From contig JAFXSR010000033.1 of assembly GCA_017525505.1 (NCBI GenBank), forward strand, positions 43,531-107,530: a stretch of DNA of 64,000 bases, written 5' to 3'. The notes beneath the pieces were generated by a model. The model was not told the origin of the DNA and searched no databases. It saw nothing but the letters and a program-made list of their open reading frames with translations. Numbering within the stretch: the stretch's first letter is position 1; each line of letters begins with the position of its first letter. Origin of the DNA: Bacteroidales bacterium (GTDB lineage Bacteria; Bacteroidota; Bacteroidia; Bacteroidales; WCHB1-69). The translations under genes were made by a program, and so were the position numbers. This document shows positions 45,956-61,528 of the stretch, piece after piece.

Positions 45956-45990
45956 GATGGCAAGTGCTTCCTCAAGGATGTGAATGCTAC
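45956..45990 (+). pseudogene. Orphan 35-bp fragment of a nucleotide-sugar dehydrogenase gene (DGKCFLKDVNA)
   Basis: gatggcaagtgcttcctcaaggatgtgaatgct matches ggtggcaaatgcttccctaaggatgtgaacgct at 47846-47878 at 28 of 33 positions. The differences are mostly at third codon positions. Confidence 0.6.
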
Positions 45991-46007
45991 TAATATATAA
46001 TATTAGA

Positions 46008-47675
46008 ATGAAAGGTATACAAAATACTATTACAGGAAATTTTAGCTCAATTATCAGCAATAGCCGGCGTTTTGTTGTCCCGAAATTCCAAAGAGACTAT
46101 TCGTGGAGTAGTGAGCAGTGGGATGATCTGTGGCAAGATATTGAGACGATGATAGAGGAGCATGATGAACATTACATGGGTTATCTTGTTCTTCAGACTC
46201 AAGACGATAAGCTTTTTTACATAATAGATGGACAGCAGCGCTTTACTACGGTATTGATTCTTATTTATGCTGCAATAAAGTGCGTGCAGAGACAGATTGC
46301 CCAGGGTGTGGATGTTGAGGACAATAGGCGTCGATGCGAATCTTTGAAGAATTTGTACATAGGGAAAGAGGATCCTGTAACATTAGACTATGACAACCTC
46401 TTAACTTTGAACAGGAATAATAACGCTTATTTCTGTGACTATATCTTGAAATTGGGTGATTTGAAGGCACGAAATCTTACAGCAACAGAAAAACTGATGC
46501 GTAGCTGCTTTGAGTATTATGAGCAAAGGCTTATTGGCAAGTTCAATAGTGGAAAAGAGTATGCTTCTTTCATCCAGACAGTTGCAGATGGTTTGCATTT
46601 TACGCAAATCGTGGTCAATGATGAGATGAATGCATTCCGTGTATTTGAGACTCTGAATGCACGTGGCGTTCAATTGTCATCTGCAGACTTGTTAAAGAAT
46701 TATTTGTTCTCTAAAGTTGATAGCGAAACCACTCATAGTAGCCGTATAGATACGTTAGAGCGCAAATGGAGCAAGCTCACCGATAATATTAAGGCCGAGA
46801 AGCTTCCAGAGTTTCTTCGCTATTATTGGAATATGCAGCACAAAACAATTCGTGCCAATGCCGTATATAAAACTATTCGTCAGGAGATTAAGGAAGATAA
46901 GCAAGTGTTCCTTTTGTTGGATGACCTCATCTCTTATAGTGATATTTATATGGCATTGACTGATGAGAATGATGAAATGTGGACAGATTCGGAGGTTAAG
47001 GATAATGTGGCTCTGCTTAATCTTTTCCGCCTGAAACAGCCTTTCTCATTGCTTATGGCTGCCAAGAAGAGTTTGACGGACAATGAGTTCAAACGGGTGC
47101 TGAAGACTGTTATCATGGTGTGTTTTCGCTATAATGTAATCTGCGATAGAAATCCCAATGACCAAGAAACTCCATTTAATGCGCTTGCTCAATCTATAAG
47201 CCATAATAATCTTGTTGATTTGAAGGAGCTTTCATCGATCATGGTGGATGATGCTGAGTTCAAGAGTGCATTTAAAGAAAAGACTTTCCCTTATAACTCG
47301 CGTAATGCCAAAGTTATGAGGTACATATTGGGAAAGATAGAGCATTTCAAAGGCTCTGCCCAGGCAGTTCGTTTTGATGATGAGAACGCATCTATAGAAC
47401 ATGTTTATCCCCAGAATCCTTCTGAAGAGTGGGATTTGGACGAATCTAAGATGCAACGTTTTGTTTTTCGACTTGGAAACATCTGCCTTTTGGAAAAAGG
47501 ATTGAATAGGGATTTGCAAAATGCAAGTTTCGCAGAAAAGGTTTCAGTTTATAAAAAGTCATCATTTTATTATGCTCAAAAAATATCATCAGAATATAAT
47601 GAATGGAATGATAGCGCTATAATAAAGCTTCAGACCGAGATGGCAAACGCTGCTGTATCTATTTGGCGAGTATAA
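46008..47675 (+). CDS. DUF262 + DUF1524 protein (GmrSD-like type IV restriction / nucleotide-targeting defence enzyme)
   Basis: The N-terminal DUF262 motifs are FVVPKFQRDYSWSSEQWDDLWQDI and IIDGQQRFTT. The C-terminal His-Me/DUF1524-like motifs are IEHVYPQNP...GNICLLEKGLNRDLQNASFAEK. The start is moved to MKGIQNT. Confidence 0.8.
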   Translation: MKGIQNTITGNFSSIISNSRRFVVPKFQRDYSWSSEQWDDLWQDIETMIEEHDEHYMGYLVLQTQDDKLFYIIDGQQRFTTVLILIYAAIKCVQRQIAQGVDVEDNRRRCESLKNLYIGKEDPVTLDYDNLLTLNRNNNAYFCDYILKLGDLKARNLTATEKLMRSCFEYYEQRLIGKFNSGKEYASFIQTVADGLHFTQIVVNDEMNAFRVFETLNARGVQLSSADLLKNYLFSKVDSETTHSSRIDTLERKWSKLTDNIKAEKLPEFLRYYWNMQHKTIRANAVYKTIRQEIKEDKQVFLLLDDLISYSDIYMALTDENDEMWTDSEVKDNVALLNLFRLKQPFSLLMAAKKSLTDNEFKRVLKTVIMVCFRYNVICDRNPNDQETPFNALAQSISHNNLVDLKELSSIMVDDAEFKSAFKEKTFPYNSRNAKVMRYILGKIEHFKGSAQAVRFDDENASIEHVYPQNPSEEWDLDESKMQRFVFRLGNICLLEKGLNRDLQNASFAEKVSVYKKSSFYYAQKISSEYNEWNDSAIIKLQTEMANAAVSIWRV

Positions 47676-47691
47676 TTGAATAAAGATAATT

Positions 47692-47974
47692 ATGATCAAC
47701 GTCGGAATCATCGGCTGCGGCTTCGTGGGTGGAGCCCTCAAGGAGTGGTTGGAACACAACAATCCTGAATGCAAGCTTTTCATCAGCGACCCCGCCAAGG
47801 GCTACACACACCCATGTTCCGGGTCCCGACGGCAAGTACGGTTATGGTGGCAAATGCTTCCCTAAGGATGTGAACGCTTTCGCCAAGATGACGGAAGGCA
47901 CATCCCTTGGAACTCTTCTGGAACACCTCCACGAGCTTAATGTCCATTTCCGTGGGGAGGAAGAGCATATCTGA
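47692..47974 (+). pseudogene. Remnant of a nucleotide-sugar dehydrogenase gene (internal deletion plus frameshift)
   Basis: Frame 1 reads MINVGIIGCGFVGGALKEWLEHNNPECKLFISDPAKGY, a Rossmann N-terminus, and then becomes junk. Frame 2 from about 47815 reads VPGPDGKYGYGGKCFPKDVNAFAK..., the catalytic-Cys motif. Hundreds of codons are missing between the two. Confidence 0.75.
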
Positions 47975-48017
47975 AACCTATAAAAAGCGTACTAGAACAC
48001 AAATATAGCAAAACATT

Positions 48018-48446
48018 ATGGGTGTTTACGAAGAACAAATAGTGCCAATCAAGATTTCGCGCTTGGCAGAATATGTGTCCAGGAGGAAGCATATTGCTCT
48101 GGAGGATGCCCTTGTGTACATATATTCCAATCCTATGTACGACCGGTTATATGACGAAGGGGCCAAGTGGTGGTATCTTAGTACTGAAGCGCTTTATGAT
48201 GAGTTTGAGACGGCACGCAATACCGAAAGTAAGAGCGTAACGCATGAGGAATTTGAGTTCTACACTTATTGTTTGGAAAAATATGCTTTGTCAAAAGGTC
48301 TTACAGGTCTTCAAACTCTTGCACTACTGAAGCGTTACGGTGCAGATGATTATCTGATTGACCATTATGGTCTTCTTCATACACAAGGCACCGATTATGT
48401 AATTGATGAGTTAGATCGCTATATTCAGAGGAGGAAAAGAGGATGA
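48018..48446 (+). CDS. DUF3791-domain protein (candidate partner/antitoxin)
   Basis: The C-terminal half EFYTYCLEKYALSKGLTGLQTLALLKRYGADDYLIDHYGLLHTQGTDYVIDELDRYI matches my memory of the DUF3791 consensus. Its stop overlaps the next start (ATGA). Confidence 0.7.
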   Translation: MGVYEEQIVPIKISRLAEYVSRRKHIALEDALVYIYSNPMYDRLYDEGAKWWYLSTEALYDEFETARNTESKSVTHEEFEFYTYCLEKYALSKGLTGLQTLALLKRYGADDYLIDHYGLLHTQGTDYVIDELDRYIQRRKRG

Positions 48447-48826
48447 TAGTGTATCACGGTTCAAATGTTAGGGTTCGCAAGCCCAGTTTGCGTATGAGCA
48501 GGAAGAAGACCGATTTTGGACGCGGCTTTTATACAACAACCCAGAAGGAGCAGGCCGAGCACTGGACCTCCATCAAGATAGATAGGGCAAAAACAGGCCG
48601 CAGAGTCGTGTCGGTTTTTGAGATTGACGACGAACTTCTAACTAATCCTGAACTGAAAATTCGCGAGTTTCATGGCCCTGATGAGGACTGGTTGAATTTC
48701 GTGGTTGACAGTCGTAAAGGTGTGGAGCACGACTACGATCTTGTGTTTGGACCCGTAGCCAATGACAAAGTGTTCACCGTGGTGAACCTTTATGAAAGCG
48801 GTGTTCTAGTATTTTGTAACATCTAA
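48443..48826 (+). CDS. DUF3990-domain protein, possible ADP-ribosyltransferase-fold enzyme; 3' end altered by IS insertion
   Basis: MIVYHGSNVRVRKPSL...TDFGRGFYTTTQKEQAEHW has an HGS...G.G.Y pattern. The present C-terminus ...ESGVLVFCNI* reads into the IS630 inverted repeat. Confidence 0.7.
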   Translation: MIVYHGSNVRVRKPSLRMSRKKTDFGRGFYTTTQKEQAEHWTSIKIDRAKTGRRVVSVFEIDDELLTNPELKIREFHGPDEDWLNFVVDSRKGVEHDYDLVFGPVANDKVFTVVNLYESGVLVFCNI

Positions 48827-48852
48827 AACTTTAATAATTGAAATATTTTTTG

Positions 48853-48860
48853 TATCTTTG
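48853..48860 (+). promoter_or_regulatory. TAnnTTTG promoter box inside IS630 left end
   Basis: TATCTTTG lies 27 nt upstream of the transposase ATG at 48887. Confidence 0.55.
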
Positions 48861-48886
48861 CCGCCGGATATTCAAAGACAGGCATT

Positions 48887-49372
48887 ATGGCAGAGTACAG
48901 AAAATTAAGAATCAAGCTGTCCGAAGAACAGCGCAAATCGTTTGAACAAATTGTCCGCAAAGGCGTTTCAGGGGCAATGGAGATACGCCGTGCCAACGTG
49001 CTGTTGCTCGCCGACGAGGCCGGTGACAGGAAACGCCAGAAGGACGTTGTAATAGCAGGCATGCTCCAAATCACGCCGCAGGCGGTCCACGACATCAAGC
49101 TCAAGTTTCTGGAGAGGAAGGACACCGTCCCCGACGAGCCGAGCTGCGGTATACGCAGGAAGAAGAGGGAGACCCCTCCTGTCCAGCCGAAATGCACGGG
49201 TGATGTGGAAGCGAAAATAACAGCCATCGCCTGCAGCTCCCCTCCCGAAGGTCGTAGCCGCTGGAACCTGCGGCTCATCGCCGACAAGGCTGTCGAATTG
49301 GAGATTGTGGACTCAATTTCACACACACAGGTCGGCCGTATTCTAAAAAAAACCAATATAAGCCTCACTTGA
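48887..49372 (+). CDS. IS630 transposase, N-terminal HTH part (orfA)
   Basis: Helix-turn-helix-like segments read EEQRKSFEQIVRKG...RRANVLLLADEAG and RWNLRLIADKAVE. It ends just after the A8 run. Confidence 0.8.
   Translation: MAEYRKLRIKLSEEQRKSFEQIVRKGVSGAMEIRRANVLLLADEAGDRKRQKDVVIAGMLQITPQAVHDIKLKFLERKDTVPDEPSCGIRRKKRETPPVQPKCTGDVEAKITAIACSSPPEGRSRWNLRLIADKAVELEIVDSISHTQVGRILKKTNISLT
49345..49352 (+). promoter_or_regulatory. A8 slippery run: candidate -1 frameshift (or transcriptional slippage) site fusing orfA and orfB
   Basis: In cta aaa aaa acc, reading one base back gives cta aaa aaa aac caa tat aag cct cac ttg aag aag aca tgg. That translates as LKKNQYKPHLKKTWCIPP, which joins the two ORFs without a stop. 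Confidence 0.55.
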
Positions 49373-50058
49373 AGAAGACATGGTGCATACCTCCCCAGCA
49401 GAATGCCGCTTTCGTGGCAAACATGGAAGATGTGCTGGAAGTCTATGCAAGGCCGTATGACCCTCTCGCCCCTGTGGTTTGCATGGACGAACAACCCATC
49501 GAGCTGCATTATGACAGCAGGGAGACCATTCACTTGTCGGAGAGCAACCATACTGAAAAGGTTGACCACGAATACACAAGGAACGGGACATGCTGCGGCT
49601 TCATGTTCACCGAGCCTCTTGGAGGCTGGAGAAGAGTGACCATTCTGGAACATCGCTGCAAGACAGACTGGGCGCAGCAGATAAAACGCCTTGTCGACGA
49701 AGACTTCCCTGACGCTGAAAAAATAGTTCTGGTGTGTGACAACCTGAACACGCACAACATATCGTCGCTGTATGAAACCTTTGAACCGGCAGAGGCGAGA
49801 CGCATCTGGGAGCGTCTCGAAATGCATCACACCCCGAAACATGGCTCGTGGCTTGACATGGCAGAGACTGAACTTTCCGTGTTTACACGGGAATGCTTGC
49901 GCAGAAGAATCGGAGACATGGAGGTCCTGAAAGCCGAGGCAGAAGCATGGTGCGTTGACCGTAATGCACGGCAGAAAGGCATTGACTGGCATTTTACCAC
50001 GGGAGATGCGAGAATCAAACTCAAACATTTGTATCCTGTTATAAAACTAAAAGATTAG
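49369..50058 (+). CDS. IS630 transposase, DDE catalytic part (orfB)
   Basis: KKTWCIPPQQNAAFVANMEDVLEVY...VCMDEQP...LVCDNLNTH...HHTPKHGSWLDMAE is a DD(E) triad of the Tc1/IS630 type. It has no ATG of its own; the track start is TTG. Confidence 0.85.
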   Translation: MKKTWCIPPQQNAAFVANMEDVLEVYARPYDPLAPVVCMDEQPIELHYDSRETIHLSESNHTEKVDHEYTRNGTCCGFMFTEPLGGWRRVTILEHRCKTDWAQQIKRLVDEDFPDAEKIVLVCDNLNTHNISSLYETFEPAEARRIWERLEMHHTPKHGSWLDMAETELSVFTRECLRRRIGDMEVLKAEAEAWCVDRNARQKGIDWHFTTGDARIKLKHLYPVIKLKD

Positions 50059-50145
50059 ATGTTACAGTGTACTAGTATGGTTTTGAAAAGTGAACAGTGT
50101 CTACAAAAAATAGAAAAATAATGTTCGTGGAATGAAAATTATTAT

Positions 50146-50153
50146 TACTTTTG
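50146..50153 (+). promoter_or_regulatory. Orphan TAnnTTTG promoter box
   Basis: TACTTTTG has no credible CDS downstream. A terminator hairpin follows about 75 nt later. Confidence 0.45.
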
Positions 50154-50159
50154 CAGTGT

Positions 50160-50258
50160 TGTTATGCCATACAGCGCAGGCATGTAAAATTACCAGCGAC
50201 AACGATTTTGGTAATTTCAATCGCTTTAACCCACATCTTTTTTTTGATGTGGGTTTTT
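50160..50258 (+). ncRNA. Candidate small RNA (about 100 nt) defined by promoter box, internal hairpins and an intrinsic terminator
   Basis: The hairpins are atgcc...ggcat (about 50164-50184) and aaattacca-13 nt-tggtaattt (50187-50217). The terminator is aacccacatc-t8-gatgtgggtt plus ttt (50228-50258). The longest ATG ORF after the predicted TSS is 7 codons. Confidence 0.3.
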
Positions 50259-50570
50259 GGATAAATCAAAAGCAGTTAATATCCATTGTTTGTCCAGTCC
50301 AAATGCTTTGCGTTCAATAATTACTCTAAAATAATTTGATTCCAGTAAATATTCTTCACCAGTTTTAGTTATCGATAATTCACCAAATTGCACAACTATC
50401 GGGATAAAATCCTCAATTTCAAATCCTAAAGCTTTAATGCTGTTCCCATGCTTCTCATAAATGTGTTTTAACCCAAATCCCTTGTTGGTTTCGGGTTCAT
50501 TTTCTCCCCACACGATGTCAATATAGCCAATATCCTCCTTGCGATGACCTGCTATAACTGACGCAACAAG
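50226..50570 (-). pseudogene. 5'-truncated gene remnant (conserved KGFGLKHIYEKHG motif; possibly nuclease/toxin-like)
   Basis: The frame stays open upstream of the track's GTG start (..LVASVIAGHRKEDIGYIDIVWGENEPETNKGFGLKHIYEKHG..). No start codon occurs before an in-frame TGA, which abuts the terminator of the upstream gene. Confidence 0.4.
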
Positions 50571-50574
50571 TCAA

Positions 50575-50602
50575 GAAAGGCGAGCCAATTGGCTCGCCTT
50601 TC
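50575..50602. terminator. Perfect 28-bp palindrome downstream of the anti-sigma-like gene
   Basis: gaaaggcgagcc-aatt-ggctcgcctttc lies 20 nt after the stop codon of the minus-strand CDS 50622-51584. Confidence 0.65.
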
Positions 50603-50621
50603 TCTTATTCTTTCACTAGTT

Positions 50622-51584
50622 TTACCGCCGGATGAGGATAACGCCTTTGCGCATCTCGTTGATATTGTTGATGCTGTAGCTGAACTGGTAATAATAACTG
50701 CCGTTGGGCAGGTTGGCACCATCCCAGTTGTTGTCGTAGCGATTACTCTGGAATACAGTCTGGCCTTTCTGGTCTTTCACGATTAGCATGCGCTTTTCAC
50801 AATTCTCCAAGCCCTTGATAACAAAGAGGTCGTTTACTCCGTCGCCATTGGGTGTGAAAATGTTCGGGATCTCTATGACAACAGGGCGCGAGTAGGCGAA
50901 ATCATCAGGATTAATGCTGGTCTCCGAAGTGTTTTCTGTTACGTTGTCCGTGCTTTCCTCCGTCTTGCTGTTGCGCTGGTTTGTTTGAGGAGTAGCATTG
51001 ACTGTATTATTTTGTGTTAGAGTGTTTTGCGTATTGTTGGCGGAGCTTGGCGATGAGCTTGGAGTTGGGCTGACGGCAGTGTTTGAGGAAGTTGTGGGAG
51101 TCGTGGGAACAGAATGGGATGGGGTAGAAGCCAGGTCAGCTGTATTGCTTGAATTAGAGGCGTTTACGACAGGTTGTTCGTCCTCCTTATGGGATTTGTC
51201 GCTGAGAGGTGCGTTCTGGATTGGAGTTTGGTTTTCGGTCTCGTTTTCTACTACATAGATGTCAGTATTATCTGCTGATATACTTGAAATACTGTCGCTT
51301 ACGCTTATTTCTGTTTGATTGCTGCTGGTAGGTTGGCTTTCGGTAGCGGGTTCATGGGTGAGAATGGCGATGGTTGTGCCGGTGACAATAGCCACTACGG
51401 CGCTGGCCGAACCGATAATGGCGGCCAACTTACCTGCCGACATGGCGCCTTTGGCGGCGGTGGCAGCGGCGCTTCCTCCTGAGCCGGCCCCTGCGGCAGG
51501 CAGCTGGGAGGCAATGCTTTCCCAACACCGCGGAGAGGGGGTCTCCTGAATCTGTTCCATGATATCCTTGATGTTCATCTTCAT
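50622..51584 (-). CDS. Anti-sigma-like single-pass membrane protein with C-terminal T9SS type-B (CHU_C / gliding-motility) sorting domain
   Basis: The N-terminus is MKMNIKDIMEQIQETPSPRCWESIASQL and the TM helix is LAAIIGSASAVVAIVTGTTIAILT. A roughly 150 aa S/T/N/P-rich linker follows. The C-terminus is IPNIFTPNGDGVNDLFVIKGLENC...NNWDGANLPNGSYYYQFSYS. It starts 9 nt downstream of the ECF sigma gene. Confidence 0.7.
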   Translation of the reverse strand: MKMNIKDIMEQIQETPSPRCWESIASQLPAAGAGSGGSAAATAAKGAMSAGKLAAIIGSASAVVAIVTGTTIAILTHEPATESQPTSSNQTEISVSDSISSISADNTDIYVVENETENQTPIQNAPLSDKSHKEDEQPVVNASNSSNTADLASTPSHSVPTTPTTSSNTAVSPTPSSSPSSANNTQNTLTQNNTVNATPQTNQRNSKTEESTDNVTENTSETSINPDDFAYSRPVVIEIPNIFTPNGDGVNDLFVIKGLENCEKRMLIVKDQKGQTVFQSNRYDNNWDGANLPNGSYYYQFSYSINNINEMRKGVILIRR

Positions 51585-51592
51585 ATCTTATG

Positions 51593-52123
51593 CTATTTTA
51601 TTTCTTCCGTAATCCAGTTTTTGGCTCTCATAAAGTAAACCCGCGCCGTGTTCTCCGTGATGTTCAGTGCTTGCCCGATTTCCTTGAAAGAGTATTCCTC
51701 AAGCACTCGCAAACTGAAGACCATTCTTTGTATTTCAGGCATCTTTTGCATGAGCTTCAATATCTCTTTTGCGGTCAGGTGGGTTTCGATATTGGCAGTT
51801 TCGTCAGCGATTTCCACCTGTTCGTCGATAATATCGTAACCGTAGCGTTTATGGTTGTTGCGGAAATTCGAGATGGCTTTGTTGACCATAATCTGCCTGA
51901 TCCAATGTTCCAAAGAGCCTTGGCCAAGATATTTGTCAAGATGGGTAAAAACTTGCATAAACCCTTCTATCATAACATCTTCTGCCTCATGCTTGGTGGC
52001 CGCATAATACATGCATACCGCCAGCATTTTTGGTGCGAAAAGATTGTACAATGCCTGTTGGCTTTTTCTGTCATTACGCAGACAGCCATCAATCAGGTCA
52101 CTATGATTATACAATTCTTCCAC
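51593..52123 (-). CDS. ECF-type RNA polymerase sigma-70 factor
   Basis: Region 2 reads DLIDGCLRNDRKSQQALYNLFAPKMLAVCMYYAATKHEAEDVMIEGF. The region 4 HTH reads VFSLRVLEEYSFKEIGQALNITENTARVYFMRAKNWI. Confidence 0.85.
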   Translation of the reverse strand: MEELYNHSDLIDGCLRNDRKSQQALYNLFAPKMLAVCMYYAATKHEAEDVMIEGFMQVFTHLDKYLGQGSLEHWIRQIMVNKAISNFRNNHKRYGYDIIDEQVEIADETANIETHLTAKEILKLMQKMPEIQRMVFSLRVLEEYSFKEIGQALNITENTARVYFMRAKNWITEEIK

Positions 52124-52176
52124 ACCTACATGACGCTTTAAACTGCGAAAACGTTACAAAGAAAAGGAATTTTTTT

Positions 52177-53154
52177 TTAGCGGAGGGATTTCACGATGGC
52201 TTCCACTTCCCGGAGATAGTTTCTCTTGTCTTCTTGCGGGGCATAGACAAAGCCATCCACAGTGATACAATGTTGTCCGTCAGGGCTTTTGAAAGTGAAG
52301 CTGTAAAAGGGACCTCCCATGTAGTCTCCGATGCTTTCCCATAAACCTCTCATTTCCATACCTTTTTTATTGCCAATCTGGTATGTGTTCACGATGGGGA
52401 AACCTGCTTTCCGGGCGATGACAGGGTAGGCGTTTTTCACAGCTCCGGGAATGTATTTCTTGGTGATGCTGTCACGCATGGCCATGACATTCTCTTCGGT
52501 AAGTTCGTAAGCGGGCAGCTTATAAACCATGATGAAACGGTCGTTTTTGGTGGTTCTGAAGCGTAACCACAGGAAATCATCGGTCTTGTTGGCAATGAAA
52601 TAATGCATGGGCACGCTGAGTGTGATGCCGAACATTTCTTTCAGGTTTTTTTGGATGGTGGGTTCCAACTCGCGGTTATAAGCGTATTGAACACGCTTCA
52701 AGTCATTGTCATACAGCAGGTCGATGATGGTATCCGCATGAGTTCTGAACAGATTCATGCAAGAATCCGCATCATAGCCTTTGATTTTGATATATACTTG
52801 AGGGTTGGACCAGGCATTACGGTCGAAAACAATGCTGTTGCTGTTGTATTTCGGACTGAAATCAAAGTGGACGATGTTGCGATGCCTTACAAATTTGGAG
52901 GTGAAGTCTTTGCTTTGCAGGTGCAGAATGTCAAACATTGGTTCATTCTGGTTGATAGCGGGCTGTGGCTGCTGCAAACTGTCAGTCACTTCCTGCAACT
53001 GACTTTCAGTGAAGAAGTTATCATCCATTACCAGCAACATTTCCCCGGCTTTGCCATTAGAGAAGTTATCGACTTTGAAGGAGCCCACACTTTTGTGGCC
53101 GCATGATGCCAGCACAAAGGCCACTGCCAAGATGGCGAAGAATATTTTTTTCAT
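52177..53154 (-). CDS. Lipoprotein of unknown function (possibly DUF4837-like)
   Basis: The start is moved to MKKIFFAILAVAFVLASCG (lipobox). I recognise no catalytic motif. Confidence 0.6.
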   Translation of the reverse strand: MKKIFFAILAVAFVLASCGHKSVGSFKVDNFSNGKAGEMLLVMDDNFFTESQLQEVTDSLQQPQPAINQNEPMFDILHLQSKDFTSKFVRHRNIVHFDFSPKYNSNSIVFDRNAWSNPQVYIKIKGYDADSCMNLFRTHADTIIDLLYDNDLKRVQYAYNRELEPTIQKNLKEMFGITLSVPMHYFIANKTDDFLWLRFRTTKNDRFIMVYKLPAYELTEENVMAMRDSITKKYIPGAVKNAYPVIARKAGFPIVNTYQIGNKKGMEMRGLWESIGDYMGGPFYSFTFKSPDGQHCITVDGFVYAPQEDKRNYLREVEAIVKSLR

Positions 53155-53173
53155 GATTATATGTTTTGATGGG

Positions 53174-54469
53174 TTATTCTCCAAAAACACGTTTGTAAAT
53201 CAGATCCACGTTCTTGAGGTAGTATTCCAGGGTAAAGCAGCTGTCCAACTCGCTTTTGCTAAGGTATTTACAAACTTCTTCATTTTGTTCGAGCAGTTCC
53301 TTGTAGTCTTTGCCGTCGAACCAGGCGGTCATGGCGATGGGTTGTACGAGGTCGTAAGCGTTTTCGCGTGACAGGCCTTTGCCGATGAGGGTAGTCATGA
53401 CACGCTGGGCGAAGATGACTTTATGGGTCAAGTATATGTTTTTCAGCATATTTTCCGGAAAGACGACGAGGTTTTCGAGGATGCCGCTGAAGCGGTTGAG
53501 CATGTAGTCGAGCAGGATGGTGGCGTCGGGCAGGATGATACGTTCGGCGGAGGAGTGGGAGATGTCGCGTTCGTGCCACAGGGCGATATCCTCGTAAGAA
53601 GTGATCATATAGCCTCGGAGCACGCGGGCGCAGCCGCACATGTTTTCGCTGCTGATGGGATTACGCTTGTGGGGCATGGCGGAGGAACCTTTCTGTCCTT
53701 TGCCGAATTTTTCCTCGGCCTCACGCAGCTCAGTACGTTGCCAGTGACGTACTTCTGTGGCCATTTTCTCGATGCAGGCGCCAATCAGGGCCAACGTGGC
53801 GATGTAGTGGGCATGGCGGTCGCGTTGCAGGGTTTGGGTGGAGATTTTGGCGGAATTGATACCCAATTGTTCACATACATAGTCCTGCACAAAAGCAGGG
53901 GCATTGGCGAAATTGCCTACGGCACCGCTTACTTTGCCGCATTCCACATCGGCGGCGGCATCCTCAAAGCGGGCGATATTGCGCTGCATGTCCTCGAACC
54001 ACAGGGCCCATTTGAGACCCAGCGAGGTGATGTCGGCATGCACGCCATGGGTACGGCCGATGCAGGGGGTGTCTTTGAATTCGTAAGCCCGCTTTTTCAG
54101 GATGGCGGACATGCGTTGCAGGTCTTCCCGCAAGATTTTGTTGGCCTGCTTGAGCAGATAGCCGTTGGCGGTGTCCACCACGTCGGTGGAAGTCATGCCG
54201 TAGTGCACCCATTTTTTCTCTTCTCCCAGGCTTTCGCTTACGGTACGGGTGAAGGCCACAATGTCGTGCTTGGTCTCTTTTTCTATTTCGTAGATGCGCT
54301 GGATGTCGAAGCGGGCGTTCTGGCGCAACAGTTCCACGTCGTGTTCGGGAATCACGCCTAACTTACTCCATGCGGCGGCGGCTTCAATCTCAACTTTCAG
54401 ATAGCTGTTGAATTTGTTCTCTTCAGTCCAAACGGCGCTCATCTCGGGGCGCGAATATCTTGGTATCAT
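53174..54469 (-). CDS. purB: Adenylosuccinate lyase
   Basis: MIPRYSRPEMSAVWTEENKF...GMTSTDVVDT...GSSAMPHKRNP is the fumarate-lyase signature. Confidence 0.95.
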   Translation of the reverse strand: MIPRYSRPEMSAVWTEENKFNSYLKVEIEAAAAWSKLGVIPEHDVELLRQNARFDIQRIYEIEKETKHDIVAFTRTVSESLGEEKKWVHYGMTSTDVVDTANGYLLKQANKILREDLQRMSAILKKRAYEFKDTPCIGRTHGVHADITSLGLKWALWFEDMQRNIARFEDAAADVECGKVSGAVGNFANAPAFVQDYVCEQLGINSAKISTQTLQRDRHAHYIATLALIGACIEKMATEVRHWQRTELREAEEKFGKGQKGSSAMPHKRNPISSENMCGCARVLRGYMITSYEDIALWHERDISHSSAERIILPDATILLDYMLNRFSGILENLVVFPENMLKNIYLTHKVIFAQRVMTTLIGKGLSRENAYDLVQPIAMTAWFDGKDYKELLEQNEEVCKYLSKSELDSCFTLEYYLKNVDLIYKRVFGE

Positions 54470-54475
54470 AGTGCT

Positions 54476-55087
54476 TTATTTTATTTTGAAATCTAAAAAT
54501 TTTTCTTCTCCGATAAAACCTTGCAGGCGGTCGTTGATGGCCACTTTGCCAACGCCTTCAGGGGTTCCTGTGAAAATGATGTCCCCGATTTTCAGGGTCA
54601 TGAATTTCGACACGTGGCAGATGATCTCGTCAATGGTGAACAGCATGTCCTTGCTGTTGCCATGTTGGACGCAGTGGTCATTCAGCATCAGCTTGAAATC
54701 CAGATTTTTGAGATCTCCGAAGTGCTCTTTTTCCACAAATTTGCTGATGACGGCGGAGCCGTCGAAGGCTTTGGCAATCTCCCAAGGGTTGCCTTCCGCC
54801 ACACATTTCCGTTGCAAGTCCCTGGCTGTAAAGTCGATACCCAAGCCGATAGCGTCATAATAAGTATGGGCGAATTTGGGCTGGATGCACTTTCCCACTT
54901 TGCAAATGCGGAAAAGGAGTTCCACCTCATGATGAATCTCCTCCGAAAAATCCGGCAGAAAGAAGGGCCGATTGCGGATAATGATGGACGAGTCGGGTTT
55001 CAGGAAAAACACCGGCTCGGTGGGCCGTTGTCTGTCCAGTTCCTGAATATGTTTCAGATAATTCTTGCCGACACAAATGATTTTCAT
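54476..55087 (-). CDS. Fumarylacetoacetate hydrolase (FAH) family protein
   Basis: MKIICVGKNYLKHIQEL...HHEVEL...GDIIFTGTPEGVG is typical of YcgM/FAHD-type enzymes. Confidence 0.8.
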   Translation of the reverse strand: MKIICVGKNYLKHIQELDRQRPTEPVFFLKPDSSIIIRNRPFFLPDFSEEIHHEVELLFRICKVGKCIQPKFAHTYYDAIGLGIDFTARDLQRKCVAEGNPWEIAKAFDGSAVISKFVEKEHFGDLKNLDFKLMLNDHCVQHGNSKDMLFTIDEIICHVSKFMTLKIGDIIFTGTPEGVGKVAINDRLQGFIGEEKFLDFKIK

Positions 55088-55096
55088 GCCTGAACA

Positions 55097-55951
55097 TTAA
55101 AAATATAAGCCAAAAAGAATCTCAACAGTTCCAATGGCGGCTTTCTCTTGTACCCCGGTTCTGCTGTTTTTGGCGTTTTTGGAGAAATAATTGTTGAGAG
55201 ACTGGGCGTAGTTGATGTAAAGTTTGCCTCTGAGGTGTCTTTTGATGACATATTCAACGCCCAAGCCGGCGAAAATAGACTCTTTGAACAAGGCTGTCTC
55301 ATTGTCTTTGGCCCAATCGGTAGTGACGTAGTTGATGGTTTCCTTGTCGGTTTCTCTTGCGCTTGGGTCGATCTGGAATCGGGATTGGTATCGGGAATAC
55401 AGATTGAAGCTATGGTAAAAACCGATATTGCCACCAATGATAAAATGGTTGAAACTGGGAGTTCTCAATGTGATGGCTGTGGGGATAGTAAAGTAAATAC
55501 TCTTGTATTTGCGGTCAATATTGGTGTTTTCCAGGGTTTTGTCAACCAGATAGATATTATCATTAAAGTTGAGGCTGCCGCCTGTATGCTCGATAAGAAC
55601 ACCAGTGGAGACATAGAAGTTTTTGGACTTGGTGAGGTCAATATCCAGGTTGACACCATAGCGGAGTCCCAGCTTCACGCTTTCGTGGGCAGAACGCTCA
55701 TAGCCTGCAGGGGCTACTTTGTGGTTTTTCCAGTTCATCCAGTTGAAGGAAGGACCGAAGGTAATACCGACAACTACCCTGCGGGCCTCCAATTCATTGT
55801 AACGGTCCACTTTGTAGTCACTATCTTTTTTTTCTTTTGCGTCTTTTTTGTTGGTATTGTCAGTGGAAGAAGAGCTGTTGGTATAGTAATTTTGTGAGAA
55901 GGCGCAGGCCATCATGGCTATCATACTGATAAAACAAATAAATTTTTTCAT
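55097..55951 (-). CDS. Outer-membrane beta-barrel protein (hypothetical)
   Basis: It has a signal peptide (MKKFICFISMIAMMACAFSQ), an alternating amphipathic strand pattern and a C-terminal ...VEILFGLYF. Confidence 0.5.
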   Translation of the reverse strand: MKKFICFISMIAMMACAFSQNYYTNSSSSTDNTNKKDAKEKKDSDYKVDRYNELEARRVVVGITFGPSFNWMNWKNHKVAPAGYERSAHESVKLGLRYGVNLDIDLTKSKNFYVSTGVLIEHTGGSLNFNDNIYLVDKTLENTNIDRKYKSIYFTIPTAITLRTPSFNHFIIGGNIGFYHSFNLYSRYQSRFQIDPSARETDKETINYVTTDWAKDNETALFKESIFAGLGVEYVIKRHLRGKLYINYAQSLNNYFSKNAKNSRTGVQEKAAIGTVEILFGLYF

Positions 55952-55977
55952 GGGATGGTATTTTTGATGTGATAATT

Positions 55978-57003
55978 TTAAAACAACATAGGTTGTTGGT
56001 CGTTTAGTCTCAATTTGCCAAGATGGGCGAAGCCTAAGTCGGTAACTTCCCTTCCCCTTGGGGTTCTCATCAGGTAGCCTTCCTGTATCAGGAAGGGTTC
56101 GTACACTTCCTCAAGGGTGCCACGGTCTTCACCCACAGCGGTGGCGATGGTGGAGATGCCAACGGGACCGCCTTTGAATTTATCAACGATAGTGGAGAGT
56201 ATTTTATTGTCCATTTCGTCTAAACCGTGTTTATCGACATTCAGGGCGGCCAGGGCCACCTGGGTGATGTCGTAGGTGATGGTGCCGTCGCCCTTGATTT
56301 GTGCAAAGTCGCGCACACGGCGCAGCAACAGGTTGGCGATACGGGGTGTGCCACGGCTACGGCGGGCAATTTCGAAGGCGGCGTCATCTTTGATGGGAAT
56401 GTTGAGGATGGAGGCCGAGCGTTTCAGAATTTGCGACAATGTCTCTGCATCATAATATTGCAGTCGCAGGTTGATGCCAAATCGCGAGCGCAAAGGAGCG
56501 GTCAACAAGCCTGAACGGGTGGTGGCTCCCACCAAAGTGAAGGGGTTGAGGGAGATCTGCACACTACGGGCGTTGGGACCGCTATCTATCATGATGTCAA
56601 TACGATAGTCCTCCATGGCGGAATACAGATACTCTTCCACGATGGGAGACAGACGGTGGATTTCATCGATGAACAGCACATCGTTAGGCTCCAGGTTGGT
56701 GAGCAGGCCAGCCAGTTCACCAGGCTTGTCGATGACTGGGCCGGAGGTGATTTTCATGTTCACTCCCATTTCGTTGGCGATGATGTGGGAGAGTGTGGTT
56801 TTTCCCAGTCCTGGAGGGCCGTGCAGCAGCACATGGTCCAGGGCCTCCCCACGGGCTTTGGCCGCGCGCACAAAGACAATGATGTTGTCAATAACCTGCT
56901 CTTGCCCATGGAAATTGGCAAAGTCCGTTGGCCGTATGGCTTTTTCGAATTCCTTTTCGGCAGCGGAAAGTCTCGCGGAATTGGGATCCAGATTATTATT
57001 CAT
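55978..57003 (-). CDS. ruvB: Holliday junction branch-migration helicase RuvB
   Basis: [11 protein letters not shown]...[13 protein letters not shown]...[11 protein letters not shown]. The start is moved to MNNNLDP (cat at 57001-57003) because the longer ORF overlaps the upstream TPR gene. Confidence 0.95.
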
Positions 57004-57011
57004 GTTTGCGC

Positions 57012-58034
57012 TTATTTCATTTTGTCCAGTCTGTTCAGGCCTACAACAGCGGGTTCGTAATTTGGCAGTATTTTCAGGGCAGTGTTGTAGGCTTCCCGGG
57101 CTTCTTCCAAACGGCCGGTGCATTCGAAGCAGACTCCGCGGTTGCAATGGGCTTCCACGCAGTTCGGCTCCACGGCAATGGCCCGGTCGAACATGGTCAT
57201 TGCTTCGTCGTATTTGTCCTGATCTACCATATAGACGTAGCCCAGGTTGTTGAGGGCAGGCAGGTGGGTGTCCTTGAGTTGCAGCACGATTTTGTATTGT
57301 TCCACCGCCTGTTCTATCTGATCATCATCTTGATTTTTTTCTCCCAAATCCTGCAGAAGTTTCGCCAGGTTGAAATTGATTTCAATATTGTTGGGGTCGG
57401 CTTGCAGGGCGTTCTGATAGTAGCTGATGGCGATGGGGTCGAGTTTTTGCTGGTAGTAATAACCCAGTTCCAGAAATGCCCTTATTTCAGTCGGATTCTG
57501 GTCGATGCACAGCTGGAACATACGCATGGCGCCCACCGTATCCTGCATTTCCTTCAGGCAGAAGCCTCTGATCAAATGGGCTTTGGGGTTGAATTTCTCT
57601 TGTTCCAGAGCGGCGTCTAAGGTACTGTTGCATTCCGGGAACATTCTGAGGTGGAAATACAATTCGGCCAGTTTCAGCCGCGCCTCGTTATTGGCAGGAT
57701 CCAAGGCGATGGCGCGTTCCAGCATCTCCTCAGTTTCATCGGTTTCTTTCTCCGCAAAGTAGATGTCCGACATCAGCACGTAGTATTTGGAGGTCTTGTC
57801 GTCCAGCTTCAGGCACTCGAACATATCCAGTTTCGCTTCGTCGATAAAGCCGCGGTTGTAGTAATAGACGGCTCTGGCATAGCGTGCCTCCGCATCTTTC
57901 GGATGCTTGTCGATGGCTTTGCTCAGTTTTGCCAGATCCGGTGGCATGTTGGCATACTGCTTGCTGTTATGGCCGCAGGCCATCAGCATCGCCACCAGGG
58001 AGAAGAGAATCAGTCTGACGAAATAGTGTTTCAT
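57012..58034 (-). CDS. Tetratricopeptide-repeat lipoprotein
   Basis: The lipobox is LVAMLMACG. There are at least 7 TPR-like 34-aa units (for example [31 protein letters not shown]). Confidence 0.7.
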
Positions 58035-58046
58035 AATAGAGGTGGA

Positions 58047-59057
58047 TTATTGTTTTTTCTCGGCGACAGCCTCACGGATTTTCGTTTCCAGTTCCTCCAT
58101 CAGTTCGGGATTGTCGTTCAGCAGCTGTTTCACGGCGTCGCGGCCCTGAGCCAGCTTGCTGTCGTTGTAAGAGAACCAGGAGCCTGATTTCTTGATGATG
58201 TTGTAATCCACGCCCAGGTCGATGATTTCACCGGTTTTGGAGATCCCTTCGCCGAAGAGAATGTCGAACTCGGCGGTGCGGAAAGGAGGCGCCACCTTGT
58301 TTTTCACCACTTTCACTTTGACACGGTTACCGGCGGCCAGGTCGCCGTCTTTCAACTGTGAGGTACGGCGGATGTCGAGACGCACGGAAGCATAGAATTT
58401 CAGGGCGTTACCGCCAGTGGTGGTTTCGGGATTGCCGAAGAGGACACCGATTTTCTCACGCAGCTGGTTGATGAAGATGCAGCAGCAGCCGGTTTTGCTG
58501 ATGGTTGCAGTCAGTTTTCGGAGGGCCTGTGACATCAGTCGGGCCTGCAGACCCATCTTGGAGTCGCCCATGTCGCCTTCAATCTCGCTCTTGGGGGTCA
58601 AAGCCGCCACAGAGTCGATGACGATGATGTCGATGGCGCCGGAACGGATCAGGTTGTCGGCGATTTCGAGGGCCTGCTCGCCGTTGTCGGGCTGCGAAAC
58701 CAGCAGGTCGGCAGTGTTCACGCCCAATTTCTCGGCGTAGGAGCGGTCGAAAGCGTGCTCGGCGTCGATGAAAGCCGCAATGCCACCGGCTTTCTGGGCC
58801 TCGGCGATGGCATGGATGGCCAAGGTGGTTTTACCGGAAGACTCGGGACCGTAGATTTCGATGATTCTTCCTTTCGGGAGACCGCCAACACCCAAAGCCA
58901 AGTCAAGGGTCAATGAGCCGGTAGAGATTACGTCGATATCTTCAACAGGAGTGTCACTCAAGCGCATGATGGCTCCCTTGCCAAAGGTCTTTTCCAATTT
59001 TTCCAGGGTGGAATTCAGCACTTTAAGTTTTTCCTCATTCATTTTTTCTTTTTCCAT
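58047..59057 (-). CDS. recA: Recombinase RecA
   Basis: FGKGAIMRL...[16 protein letters not shown]...IVIDSVAAL. The start is moved to [12 protein letters not shown]. Confidence 0.95.
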
Positions 59058-59183
59058 AGGACAGTTTTTTTCAAGATTAAACAAACTACAAAAATACAAA
59101 TATTTTTTCATTTCTCGTCCAACAGACACGGAATATTTTTCTGCGCAACCGCATCTGTTGCAGAGAAGGAAATTTTATCGTTG

Positions 59184-59308: not shown

Positions 59309-61528
59309 CTATTTTTTCACCACTTTATGATAAGAGTTTTTTCCGTCAGTTATCAGTTTCAATATATATACTGAAGGACTTAAAGAATTGATATTGAGCT
59401 GGTATAAGCGACCTATAAACTTGGTTTCCAATATTTTGCGACCGGTAAGGTCAAAAACCTGCACTTGGGTAATGTCATCGTTCGTCGTTTCGATGTGGAG
59501 GATGTCGGTGGCGGGATTGGGGTAACATTTGGCAGTTGTGCTTTCCGTTTCGTTAATGCTGACGGGAATGCCGGTTCTGCCTTCAAAGTAGGCGAATCCG
59601 CCGGCATAGTTGCCCACGATGAGGTCGGGATAATTGTCGTTGTTCAGTTCTCCTACGGCAACTCCCACCCGGATGCCTTCTTGTATGGGCAGATGTTGAG
59701 TTCCAGTTTGTTCAGGCAGCCATGTGGTTTGCAGGGAGAAACTTCCGCTGAGGTTGTTGTCTATATTGTTGTAAAGGAACAGTTTGCCCTGCTCGTTGCC
59801 GCAAAGCAGCAGGGTTTCGTTGTTTTGTCTGAAAAAGCAGGGAGTGGCAAAGCCGAAATAGGAGAGGGTATAATCACGTACATCAACGTTGCCCAGGTTG
59901 CTGGTCTCCAATTGAAAACTACTGTTTTCATTGGTGGAAATGTTTCTGTAATAGGATATTTGCCCACGGCGGTTGCCGATAAGCAGATCTATTTTGCCGT
60001 CCCGGTCGAGGTCGAACAGTTGGGGAGTGGCAAAATCGCCGGCCTCAATATTCAGGAAATTCTCCGTTATCTGTCCGTTTTTTGCCTTTATGAGAGAGCC
60101 ATCACTGCATCCGCATATCATTTCTGTTTGTCCGTCACCGTCCAGGTCCCCGAAAGTGGGGAAGAGGGCTTGTTTGTTGAGTTGGCGCAGGTTGCCGAAA
60201 TCGGGATTCATCAGTCGAAAGGCGGGTTGAGAAGCTGTGCCGATATTCTCGAAGTAGGCAATGGAGGAGGAGTAATACGAGGTGAGGAAGCCGTTGTAAT
60301 AGGCGGAACTGTCGTAGTAGCCGTAGTTTCCGGCGAACAAATCCAGCAGTCCGTCACCGTTCCAGTCGTAGAGCACGGGGTAACAGCCGGAGCCTAAGTT
60401 CACCATTTGCTCTTGCAAAAATTTCTGTGTAACCAGACTGTAATTTTGCAACAGACTGTCGTATTCGTACAGCCATACACTGTTGACATTCTGTGATTTA
60501 TTCAAAGAAGGGTCGGCGGGGGAAACCAGTAGTTCCGGGATGTTGTCTCCATTTAAATCCGTTGAAGAGACCAGCGGCATGGAGTATAAGGAGATGGGGT
60601 TGACGGCATTGGGGACGGCGGAAGTTTGCGCCACCATCAGGGCTTCGGACAAGAAGCCCCCGTTGGTCAGAAGCACGACCTGTGCATAGTCAATATCGCC
60701 CAAAATAAGATCTTCCAAGCCGTCGTGGTTGAAGTCGGTCATGGTCATGGTGGAGCCGACATGGCGGTTAGGTTCTTCATTCTTGCTTTGGCAATAGCTC
60801 AGCAAGGTAATCTCGTTGTTGTCGGCCCCTTCGGAAAACTTTCCCCAGCACTCGTCCTCCAGTCGGAAGTCCAGCCAGCCGTTGGCAAGGTTGTTTTCTA
60901 GGGCATAATTTCGTTGATAATGAACGTATTTTCCTAATACCCAAAAGTTTAGTATATCCATATCGCCATCATGGTCCACATCGGCAACCACCAGGTTGTC
61001 ATCGGGCGAGGCGTAGATATTGCTGTAACTGGTATAGTAAAAGGAGGTAAGTTGGTCGGTTACCAAGCTGAATGAAAGCTGTTCCTGCGAGCTGTTTCTG
61101 AAGACTCTGATTCCCGCGAGACCGTATGTAAAAATGTCTTTTTTACCGTCGTTGTCATAGTCTTTCAGGATAAGCCAGTCGTGCAGTCCGGGGAAGCAAT
61201 GCCGGTATTCGGGGGCATATAGCCATTGCTGGCCATGCCGCAAAAAGGGAAGCAGACGGTTGCCGTGCTTTTCAAAGGCCAGCAGGTCATCGGTGCCGTC
61301 GAGGTCAAGGTCGATGTTGAAAAACGCAAGGTTGCTCATGCCTCCCGCCCAAGCCAGGGACAGGGTGTCATTGCCCGTTAGCACGAGGATGCTCTGGTTT
61401 CGTTGAAAAGCAGGAATGTATGTGGTTTGGGCTGAAAGTTGAAAACTGAAAGTTGAAAACTGAAAGTTGAAAATTACAAGCAGGAGTATTCTTAGTGATA
61501 ACTTCCGAAAAAACATTCTTTTTTTCAA
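59309..61528 (-). CDS. FG-GAP/VCBS-repeat protein with T9SS type-A C-terminal sorting domain
   Basis: There are multiple D.D.DG..D[LI] calcium-loop repeats (DLDLDGTDDLL, DVDHDGDMDIL, DFNHDGLEDLIL, DLDGDGQTEMI, DLDRDGKIDLLI). The C-terminus is CYPNPATDILHIE...VFDLTGRKI...SVYILKLITDGKNSYHKVVKK. Confidence 0.85.
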   Translation of the reverse strand: MKKRMFFRKLSLRILLLVIFNFQFSTFSFQLSAQTTYIPAFQRNQSILVLTGNDTLSLAWAGGMSNLAFFNIDLDLDGTDDLLAFEKHGNRLLPFLRHGQQWLYAPEYRHCFPGLHDWLILKDYDNDGKKDIFTYGLAGIRVFRNSSQEQLSFSLVTDQLTSFYYTSYSNIYASPDDNLVVADVDHDGDMDILNFWVLGKYVHYQRNYALENNLANGWLDFRLEDECWGKFSEGADNNEITLLSYCQSKNEEPNRHVGSTMTMTDFNHDGLEDLILGDIDYAQVVLLTNGGFLSEALMVAQTSAVPNAVNPISLYSMPLVSSTDLNGDNIPELLVSPADPSLNKSQNVNSVWLYEYDSLLQNYSLVTQKFLQEQMVNLGSGCYPVLYDWNGDGLLDLFAGNYGYYDSSAYYNGFLTSYYSSSIAYFENIGTASQPAFRLMNPDFGNLRQLNKQALFPTFGDLDGDGQTEMICGCSDGSLIKAKNGQITENFLNIEAGDFATPQLFDLDRDGKIDLLIGNRRGQISYYRNISTNENSSFQLETSNLGNVDVRDYTLSYFGFATPCFFRQNNETLLLCGNEQGKLFLYNNIDNNLSGSFSLQTTWLPEQTGTQHLPIQEGIRVGVAVGELNNDNYPDLIVGNYAGGFAYFEGRTGIPVSINETESTTAKCYPNPATDILHIETTNDDITQVQVFDLTGRKILETKFIGRLYQLNINSLSPSVYILKLITDGKNSYHKVVKK
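61431..61475. repeat. Word array (TGAAAGT TGAAAAC) inside the signal-peptide coding region
   Basis: gctgaaagttgaaaactgaaagttgaaaactgaaagttgaaaatt encodes, on the minus strand, ...VIFNFQFSTFSFQLSAQ. Confidence 0.9.

Follow-up and report, generated by a model that had tools for sequence, protein, structure and literature searches.

We analyzed a 64,000-nucleotide stretch of DNA from a Bacteroidales bacterium (NCBI GenBank assembly GCA_017525505.1, contig JAFXSR010000033.1, positions 43,531 to 107,530 of the forward strand; hereafter the window, numbered from its first nucleotide) and identified a two-gene unit encoding an extracytoplasmic function (ECF) sigma factor and, immediately downstream, a single-pass membrane protein, here called the partner, which ends in a type IX secretion system (T9SS) C-terminal domain (CTD) of type B. 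[quoted passage not shown] The features on which this explanation draws are collected in Table 1.

Dma-type anti-sigma factors have been known only since 2024; they control vesiculation, envelope-stress protection, and gut colonization in Bacteroides. Four features define the family, namely a sigma-binding domain at the N-terminus, a transmembrane (TM) helix, a long tether that is disordered, and a β-barrel at the C-terminus; ECF21 sigma factors are encoded next to these proteins (PMC13088901). Reo, the B. fragilis orthologue, sequesters EcfO through its N-terminus (as cited in PMC10927553), and in P. vulgatus, toxins that damage the envelope activate the orthologue, whose sigma factor gene is induced 33-fold (PMC9308784).

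Table 1. Positions of the sigma/partner operon, the segments of the partner protein, and neighboring features in the window.
Feature	Position	Strand	Basis or remark
ECF (group 4) sigma factor gene	51593..52123	-	176 aa, GTG start
Partner gene	50622..51584	-	320 aa
Partner residues 1-32, cytoplasmic N-terminal module, putative sigma-binding anti-sigma region	51489..51584	-	Motif conservation
Partner residues 33-52, juxtamembrane segment rich in Ala and Gly, with K45 and K52 at its end	51429..51488	-	Alignment and sequence
Partner residues 53-76, single TM helix, predicted uncleaved anchor	51357..51428	-	Hydrophobicity; boundaries read by eye
Partner residues 77-236, disordered S/T/N/P-rich spacer/tether	50877..51356	-	Composition and AlphaFold
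Partner residues 237-320, type-B T9SS CTD (CHU_C / TIGR04131), divergent, without the cargo NRW	50625..50876	-	Pfam and NCBIfam
ECF-type promoter TGTAAC-N17-CGTC (TGTAACGTTTT-N12-CGTC)	52132..52158	-	Conservation upstream of sigma
GC-rich palindromic hairpin, 13-bp stem	50574..50603	.	Begins 19 nt past the partner stop
DUF4837 lipoprotein gene, immediate upstream neighbor	52177..53190	-	Pfam DUF4837, E=3e-81
GmrSD	45984..47675		Within block downstream of partner
DUF3791 + DUF3990	48018..48826		Within block downstream of partner
HTH_32 + DDE_3 transposase, divided between two frames that overlap	48887..50058		Within block downstream of partner
PBECR1 nuclease fragment	50226..50513	-	Within block downstream of partner
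3,500-aa ORF, predicted giant T9SS-secreted surface protein	1744..12246	+	Many fibronectin type III domains, CHB_HEX_C_1/Fn3_assoc, C-terminal TIGR04183 at 28.7 bits (cut-off 23)
FG-GAP repeat protein with type-A T9SS sorting domain	59309..61528	-	TIGR04183 at 51.7 bits; position kept in L093

Architecture of the partner protein

The original prediction, made from the DNA sequence alone, had placed in this protein a short cytoplasmic N-terminus, one TM helix, an S/T/N/P-rich spacer of roughly 150 amino acids (aa), and a type-B CTD; our analysis recovered the same open reading frame (ORF) positions and the same four parts, with a spacer of ~160 aa, while the gap to the sigma gene, which lies upstream on the same strand, measures 8 nt and not the 9 nt reported. 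Profile searches identified the CTD with confidence. The Pfam model CHU_C (PF13585) matches residues 237-318 over its entire length (model positions 1-86 of 86) with E=2e-19 and a score of 69.9 bits (cut-off 27), and stops 2 residues short of the partner stop, and the T9SS type-B model TIGR04131 scores 45.9 bits against a cut-off of 35. The C-terminus matched only these two models in Pfam and NCBIfam, and OMP_b-brl_2, the barrel family found in related proteins (see below), was not found in the partner.

AlphaFold modeling from a 26-sequence alignment predicted the CTD to be a confident small β-sandwich (block-mean pLDDT 80-96, mostly >90 from residue 250) and the spacer to be disordered (block-mean pLDDT 32-48); the composition of the latter is S 19%, T 16%, N 12%, and P 9%. 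No solved structure matched the CTD at E≤0.001; the nearest was 8glk_D, a substrate CTD bound within the T9SS translocon of F. johnsoniae, with a weak match (E=8.8e-3; TM-score 0.61 on the target). The spacer is poorly conserved in sequence and tightly held in length: among 72 family members it spans 129-169 aa (median 156, standard deviation 7.9), and across 26 diverse members the mean identity to the window protein is 26% in the spacer, 72% in the N-terminal 32 residues, and 70% in the CTD, which is thus strongly constrained. In the Bacteroidales members, the TM helix and the CTD are not separated by a passenger domain.

Conservation in the N-terminal module (N-module) falls on K6, P16, W21, I24, S26, Q27, and L28, with W21 and L28 invariant. 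The original prediction also proposed that this region is an anti-sigma domain. Here, residues 1-80 gave no match at E≤0.1 in Pfam or NCBIfam, classical anti-sigma domains (zf-HC2/RsrA-like, FecR/DUF4880, RskA, NepR) included, and within the family only the relative L032 showed a match to an NCBIfam "anti-sigma factor" model, NF052375, below threshold (18.8 bits against a cut-off of 100). An N-terminus this short nevertheless has an experimental precedent as a sigma-binding element, as residues 1-40 of B. thetaiotaomicron Dma1 (BT_4721) suffice to pull down Das1 (BT_4720; PMC10927553), and by analogy the N-module may do the same.

The only strongly hydrophobic segment of the partner lies well inside the chain. 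Averaged over 19 residues, hydrophobicity peaks in the stretch that begins with residue 56 (Kyte-Doolittle mean 1.99), and across 72 family members the corresponding stretch begins at residues 46-70. The helix is preceded by lysines K45 and K52 and followed by two glutamates and no basic residue, which fits an orientation with the N-terminus inside, and inspection of the segment revealed no A-x-A cleavage motif. The five family members with a correctly called start have their hydrophobic core beginning at residues 48-67, versus a core inside the first 20 residues in 48 of the 65 ordinary CHU_C proteins whose 5' end is intact, as judged by a strict heuristic. Translation from Met48, which would turn the segment into a signal peptide, was ruled out: Met48 is not conserved and the residues upstream of it are strongly constrained at the protein level. 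It follows that the N-terminus is truly coding and that the hydrophobic segment does not constitute a signal peptide.

The sigma/partner pair is conserved in Bacteroidota

A protein search retrieved ~75 relatives of the partner (295-334 aa), nearly all full-length with respect to the query, and the named ones all come from Bacteroidales metagenome-assembled genomes (MAGs). Further members came from a genome scan with a pattern derived from CHU_C, in which the first 600 pattern matches were evaluated and gave at least six family members, and from a metagenome scan with the N-terminal alignment, which gave at least nine loci. The members from the genome scan belong at least to Bacteroidales, an unclassified Bacteroidota MAG, Crocinitomicaceae, and Vicingaceae, and the CHU_C-type partner thus recurs in at least two orders of Bacteroidota.

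A co-oriented ECF sigma gene lies directly upstream of the partner in all 20 motif-bearing loci with readable upstream DNA, whereas a sigma gene adjoins none of the 74 other CHU_C genes of the same scan. The 20 loci comprise the window, three distant members (21-33% identity), five loci from species-representative genomes, nine metagenomic loci, and two more; the locus of the sixth member of the genome scan (L069) is cut by a contig end and was left outside this count. The spacing between sigma and partner ranges from -14 to +22 nt in 18 loci and is 2-11 nt in L093 and L094, and the genes flanking the pair vary among the distant members. We conclude that the pair is a conserved functional unit and not a chance neighborhood.

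It should be noted that one relative from a 1.8-kb contig (P0066, 460 aa) keeps the TM helix, the spacer, and CHU_C, with the N-module replaced by ~195 aa of unrelated sequence that has no Pfam match. This protein may reflect a rearrangement or an assembly chimera; we considered it as a natural sigma/partner fusion and rejected this, as the sequence in place of the N-module is unrelated.

The sigma factor belongs to a clade shared with barrel-type partners

The sigma factor contains Sigma70_r2 and Sigma70_r4_2 (Pfam) and lacks region 3, and matches TIGR02937 with 85 bits (cut-off 42.9); its best specific NCBIfam match is NF058625 (sigma_PG0214), under the cut-off of that model. This domain content, with sigma-2 and sigma-4 only, and the AAC/CGT-type promoter ahead of the gene fit ECF group 4. 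The window sigma is 31-56% identical to the sampled sigma factors located beside N-module partners of either type, versus 17-19% to other ECF sigma factors.

Some of the loci contain further sigma factors of this clade at a distance from their CHU_C gene (phmmer 1e-29 to 1e-39, against ~1e-8 for other ECF sigma factors). In five of these loci (L026, L053, L058, L060, and L078), the sigma gene is followed by one for a protein with the N-motif, a TM helix, a long spacer, and a barrel-like C-terminus. The latter matches OMP_b-brl_2 above the cut-off of 27 bits in L053 (31.8 bits) and just below it in L026 (24.5) and L060 (24.8); L058 has no Pfam match, and L078 was called barrel-like from sequence alone. 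These barrel-type partners are longer than the CHU_C type (~450-730 aa versus 295-334 aa) and have in common the motif F..aF...e..PS..vW..I...L, whose PS...W..I...L register is shared with the CHU_C-type proteins. Two members, L032 and L069, carry the same N-module followed by a PKD-like region and CHU_C (the PKD match exceeds its cut-off in L069 and falls short of it in L032).

In a neighbor-joining tree, computed without bootstrap, the N-module-associated sigma factors form one clade with the barrel-associated ones nested inside it, and their identities are 29-64% among themselves versus 16-28% to other ECF sigma factors. An exhaustive hidden Markov model (HMM) search with an N-module profile retrieved 2,994 cluster representatives at E≤1e-3, 456 of them at E≤1e-10, with the module at residue 1 in nearly all listed matches. 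Among 60 full-length representatives, 41 carry OMP_b-brl_2 and one carries CHU_C, a ratio that is biased by a profile weighted to the Cytophagales barrel type; the input of that profile consisted of word-indexed census sequences, mainly truncated fragments without Pfam domains.

Some barrel-type proteins carry the cytoplasmic motif in tandem ahead of the TM helix, with five copies at a ~31-aa period in P0186 and two copies each in P0120 and P0124. Because of these tandem copies, the sequences suggest that the ~31-aa motif is an autonomous unit, and one such anti-sigma factor might hold several sigma factors or touch both domains of one.

We also observed that C14 and C37 of the sigma factor are invariant in all 18 aligned clade members (39-94% identity to the window sigma), and that the partner has a cysteine, C20 (51525..51527), just ahead of the invariant tryptophan, which is kept in most of the CHU_C-type members shown. 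A redox role for these cysteines is conceivable by analogy, because the relative EcfO, from B. fragilis, reacts to oxidative stress.

A conserved promoter and a putative terminator delimit the operon

The promoter ahead of the sigma gene is identical or nearly so in all close relatives, and variants of the form xxAAC(C)-N15-17-(C)GTC could be recognized by eye in most of the distant loci, including those of barrel type but not L026. The sigma gene appears to be autoregulated. The -10 element ends 8 nt ahead of the annotated GTG start codon, and the transcript is therefore predicted to be leaderless or nearly so. In L087, L088, L089, L091, and L092, taking the first start codon of each ORF places the sigma start inside the promoter; the true starts in these loci probably lie further downstream, or the mRNA is leaderless. 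At the other end of the unit, the hairpin is likely a bidirectional terminator that closes the two-gene operon. The conserved promoter offers a ready reporter, and the presence of the family in gut Bacteroidales and in Flavobacteriales lineages means that a tractable host may be found.

Divergence of the CTD from T9SS cargo

The host is very likely T9SS-positive, because the window encodes two type-A cargo proteins (Table 1); no T9SS core genes lie within the window itself. Compared with 73 ordinary cargo CTDs of the same scan, the CTD keeps 26 of the 34 conserved columns, with eight changed. The retained positions include IPNxFTPNGDGxND, F.I, W.G, G.Y.Y, and the terminal G...R.

The partner is similar to type-B cargo such as that of the SprB/SprF, Fjoh_3952/3951, and PG1035/PorP/PorE systems in belonging to the same CTD family (TIGR04131/PF13585) and in keeping most of its conserved positions. 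Type-B CTDs depend on PorP/SprF-like outer membrane shuttles, to which they stay bound for anchorage (PMC9143113; PMC12618676). A cognate shuttle gene beside the cargo gene is frequent but not the rule in every case. Like three orphan type-B cargo proteins of F. johnsoniae that share a single orphan shuttle, the partner has no adjacent shuttle gene (PMC12618676). Unlike type-B cargo, the partner has no cleavable signal peptide, no passenger or adhesin domain, and no near-invariant NRW, is predicted to be anchored in the inner membrane, and is paired with a sigma gene. It resembles cargo, yet departs from the scheme in which the signal peptide is cleaved and the protein is then released.

A proposed Dma-like anti-sigma factor with a type-B CTD

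The pair resembles the Dma systems in several respects: it is a two-gene operon with the sigma gene first, confined to Bacteroidota, in which the sigma gene is apparently autoregulated; the cytoplasmic region at the N-terminus of the partner is very short (in Dma1, 40 aa are enough) and is followed by one TM helix, a long disordered tether, and a C-terminus that would be directed to the outer membrane; and the sigma factor falls in the same clade as those located beside OMP_b-brl_2 partners that share the N-motif. The difference lies in the C-terminus, where an ~85-aa type-B T9SS CTD takes the place of the 8-stranded OMP_b-brl_2 barrel. With the barrel replaced, the connection to the outer membrane would therefore be made through another protein or machine, and not by insertion through the β-barrel assembly machinery (BAM).

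According to this explanation, the ~32-40 N-terminal cytoplasmic residues would hold the sigma factor at the inner membrane, where the single TM helix would anchor the partner with its N-terminus inside, and the ~156-aa disordered spacer would span the periplasm. The type-B CTD would dock to the T9SS translocon, to a PorP/SprF-type shuttle barrel, or to both, and this outer membrane contact would do in trans the job that the fused barrel does in Dma proteins. Loss or perturbation of the contact, through envelope damage or through the status of the T9SS or of the shuttle, would lead to proteolysis of the tether and the TM segment, and the freed sigma factor would transcribe its own operon and a further regulon.

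Several observations weigh against this explanation. The link to Dma proteins is drawn from architecture, gene context, sigma clade, and a short motif; a homology search from a Bacteroidales barrel-type partner gave seven matches, none of them a named Bacteroides protein. Alignment of the CHU_C-type and barrel-type N-modules with hhalign is in register at a probability of 3%, the motif being too short for significance. An HMM built only from barrel-type cytoplasmic modules reaches CHU_C-type partners at E=6e-4 at best and the Bacteroidales subfamily at ~0.3-3, and misses L002 and L007, although most CHU_C-type partners rank within its top 25 of 2,722 ORFs. With regard to the regulon, the 64-kb window holds no second strict copy of the promoter, and two looser matches against 1.27 expected are at chance level.

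The remaining difficulties concern the docking of the CTD. The NRWG block of cargo CTDs (N 92%, R 99%, W 86%) reads D-(Q/R)-(K/N)-G in the family, and no PorP_SprF gene lies within 10 kb of the pair in L001-L003, L093, and L094, or among the window ORFs scanned. As long as its inner membrane anchor holds, a chain has no lateral way out of the SprA channel and cannot be set free across the outer membrane, so that complete export is hard to reconcile with the topology if the tether stays uncut. In P. gingivalis, PorA that was artificially tethered to the inner membrane is not surface-exposed (PMC12152298).

The original prediction was made without knowledge of a described example. For the two halves of the idea examples exist, since the chassis is that of the published Dma family and the CTD as a regulator of a sigma cascade is published for PorA-PorY-SigP (PMC12152298). 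For their combination, we found no paper describing a Dma chassis with a type-B CTD in place of the barrel. Neither Dma paper mentions the T9SS or a C-terminus other than the barrel (PMC10927553; PMC13088901), full-text searches for anti-sigma factors together with a type-B CTD or the T9SS returned only the PorA work, and the ECF reclassification paper does not discuss ECF21 or this partner type in its main text.

PorA provides a functional parallel. The CTD of this P. gingivalis protein binds PorY and acts through SigP (PMC12152298; PMC7712824), and the inner membrane-tethered form described above still signals (PMC12152298). Both PorA-PorXY-SigP and the system described here would use a T9SS sorting domain as a regulatory element controlling an ECF sigma factor. 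PorA differs from the partner in being a separate protein whose CTD is of type A and whose signal peptide is cleaved, and its role is that of a ligand of the histidine kinase PorY, not of an anti-sigma factor; SigP has no such partner.

Two other anti-sigma systems outside the T9SS offer points of comparison. FecR is an inner membrane anti-sigma factor whose periplasmic end contacts an outer membrane protein. FlgM is an anti-sigma factor removed by flagellar type III export, which couples the state of the machine to transcription; it is soluble and exported whole. The partner has no sequence or domain relationship to either of them, and gave no FecR, DUF4880, or zf-HC2 match in Pfam.

If the explanation that we favor holds, the swap of barrel for CTD would show that the outer membrane module is exchangeable and that the chassis can be plugged into another outer membrane targeting route. 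The partner would also be a candidate for a direct link from the T9SS apparatus, or from PorP/SprF shuttles, to an ECF sigma factor, simpler than the PorA-PorXY-SigP relay.

A more specific proposal, which we put forward only tentatively and with low confidence, is that the CTD functions as a T9SS signal although the protein carrying it cannot be set free, and that its capture by the translocon, the motor, or the shuttle (through occupancy, pull, or the absence of capture) decides whether the anti-sigma factor is cleaved. If true, transcription in Bacteroidota would be subject to a checkpoint set by a secretion system, in which the partner plays for the T9SS the part that FlgM plays for the flagellum, and the partner would be a natural probe of a polypeptide bridging the inner membrane and the T9SS. 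The original prediction is partly supported by our analysis: its anti-sigma reading gains strength from the Dma precedent, and its proposal that T9SS engagement or extraction of the CTD would trigger release of the sigma factor is a hypothesis, with some evidence speaking against a CTD that behaves simply like cargo.

Alternative roles of the CTD

The two main alternatives differ only in the role that they assign to the CTD. The first is a secretion-gated switch similar to FlgM, in which the T9SS recognizes the CTD and removes or destabilizes the anti-sigma factor by pulling on it, or by exporting it after cleavage of the tether, so that the sigma factor reports T9SS function. The CTD is a genuine type-B domain that exceeds curated cut-offs over the whole model, it is preceded in some members by a PKD-like region as in real cargo, and the host is T9SS-positive by the reasoning given above; PorA, whose CTD has both secretion and signaling roles, sets a precedent (PMC12152298). 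In L032, a PKD/Ig/CHU_C cargo gene lies directly downstream of the pair and is read in the same direction. We nevertheless consider the switch unlikely. The partner has lost NRW, which is near-invariant in the 73 cargo CTDs, and in SprB the mutation of any one of five conserved type-B motifs abolishes secretion (PMC12618676), although NRW is not mapped to one of these motifs by letter. Moreover, the cognate shuttle gene is not adjacent, no T9SS component gene is conserved near the pair in the annotated neighborhoods of L001-L003, L093, and L094, and the sibling Dma proteins sense the state of the outer membrane or envelope without a T9SS.

The second alternative, which we also judge improbable, is an exapted periplasmic sensor: the CHU_C fold would no longer be a secretion signal and would bind a ligand or protein on behalf of a conventional single-pass anti-sigma factor. 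A divergent CTD subfamily without NRW and with 8 of 34 cargo-conserved columns changed fits this alternative, although the typical type-B positions PNGDGxND, WDG, GxYxY, and the terminal G...R are kept. The lack of a nearby shuttle gene agrees with it too, as does PorA, whose CTD acts in the periplasm on PorY and signals from a tethered form without reaching the surface (PMC12152298). A conserved disordered spacer of ~156 aa is, however, hard to explain if the outer membrane need not be reached, and the siblings on the same chassis carry an outer membrane barrel.

Finally, the case that the original prediction had itself named as its counter-reading, that of plain T9SS cargo whose signal peptide is cleaved and whose gene happens to lie beside a sigma gene, agrees with the current annotation of the partner (only [quoted passage not shown]) and is effectively refuted by the 20/20 versus 0/74 pairing, the ~50 conserved residues ahead of the hydrophobic segment with a non-conserved Met48, the N-motif common to barrel-type anti-sigma-like proteins, and the lack of a passenger domain in the Bacteroidales members.

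Genomic neighborhood

L032 is the only locus in which the pair lies beside ordinary type-B cargo. There (3292..8677), the genes for the sigma factor and the N-module/CHU_C partner are followed by co-directional genes for a 485-aa secreted protein, not assigned to a family, and for a 696-aa PKD/Ig_7/CHU_C type-B cargo protein. This cargo neighbor may hint at the regulon.

In the window, the pair ends a conserved Bacteroidales block (52177..59129 for the genes ahead of it, minus strand; compared with L093 and L094) that encodes RecA, a tetratricopeptide repeat (TPR) protein, RuvB, a small OMP_b-brl_2 protein (55097..55951), an FAA hydrolase, a PurB-like lyase, the DUF4837 lipoprotein, the sigma factor, and the partner. 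The DUF4837 gene holds the same position in L093, L094, and the distant L003, and is a conserved neighbor in the Bacteroidales members. The partner gene is followed directly downstream by a block (45984..50513) of genes of mobile and defense type, which comprises the GmrSD, DUF3791/DUF3990, transposase, and PBECR1 entries of Table 1. This block looks like an insertion, because L093 and L094 carry a MacB/FtsX gene downstream of the partner instead.

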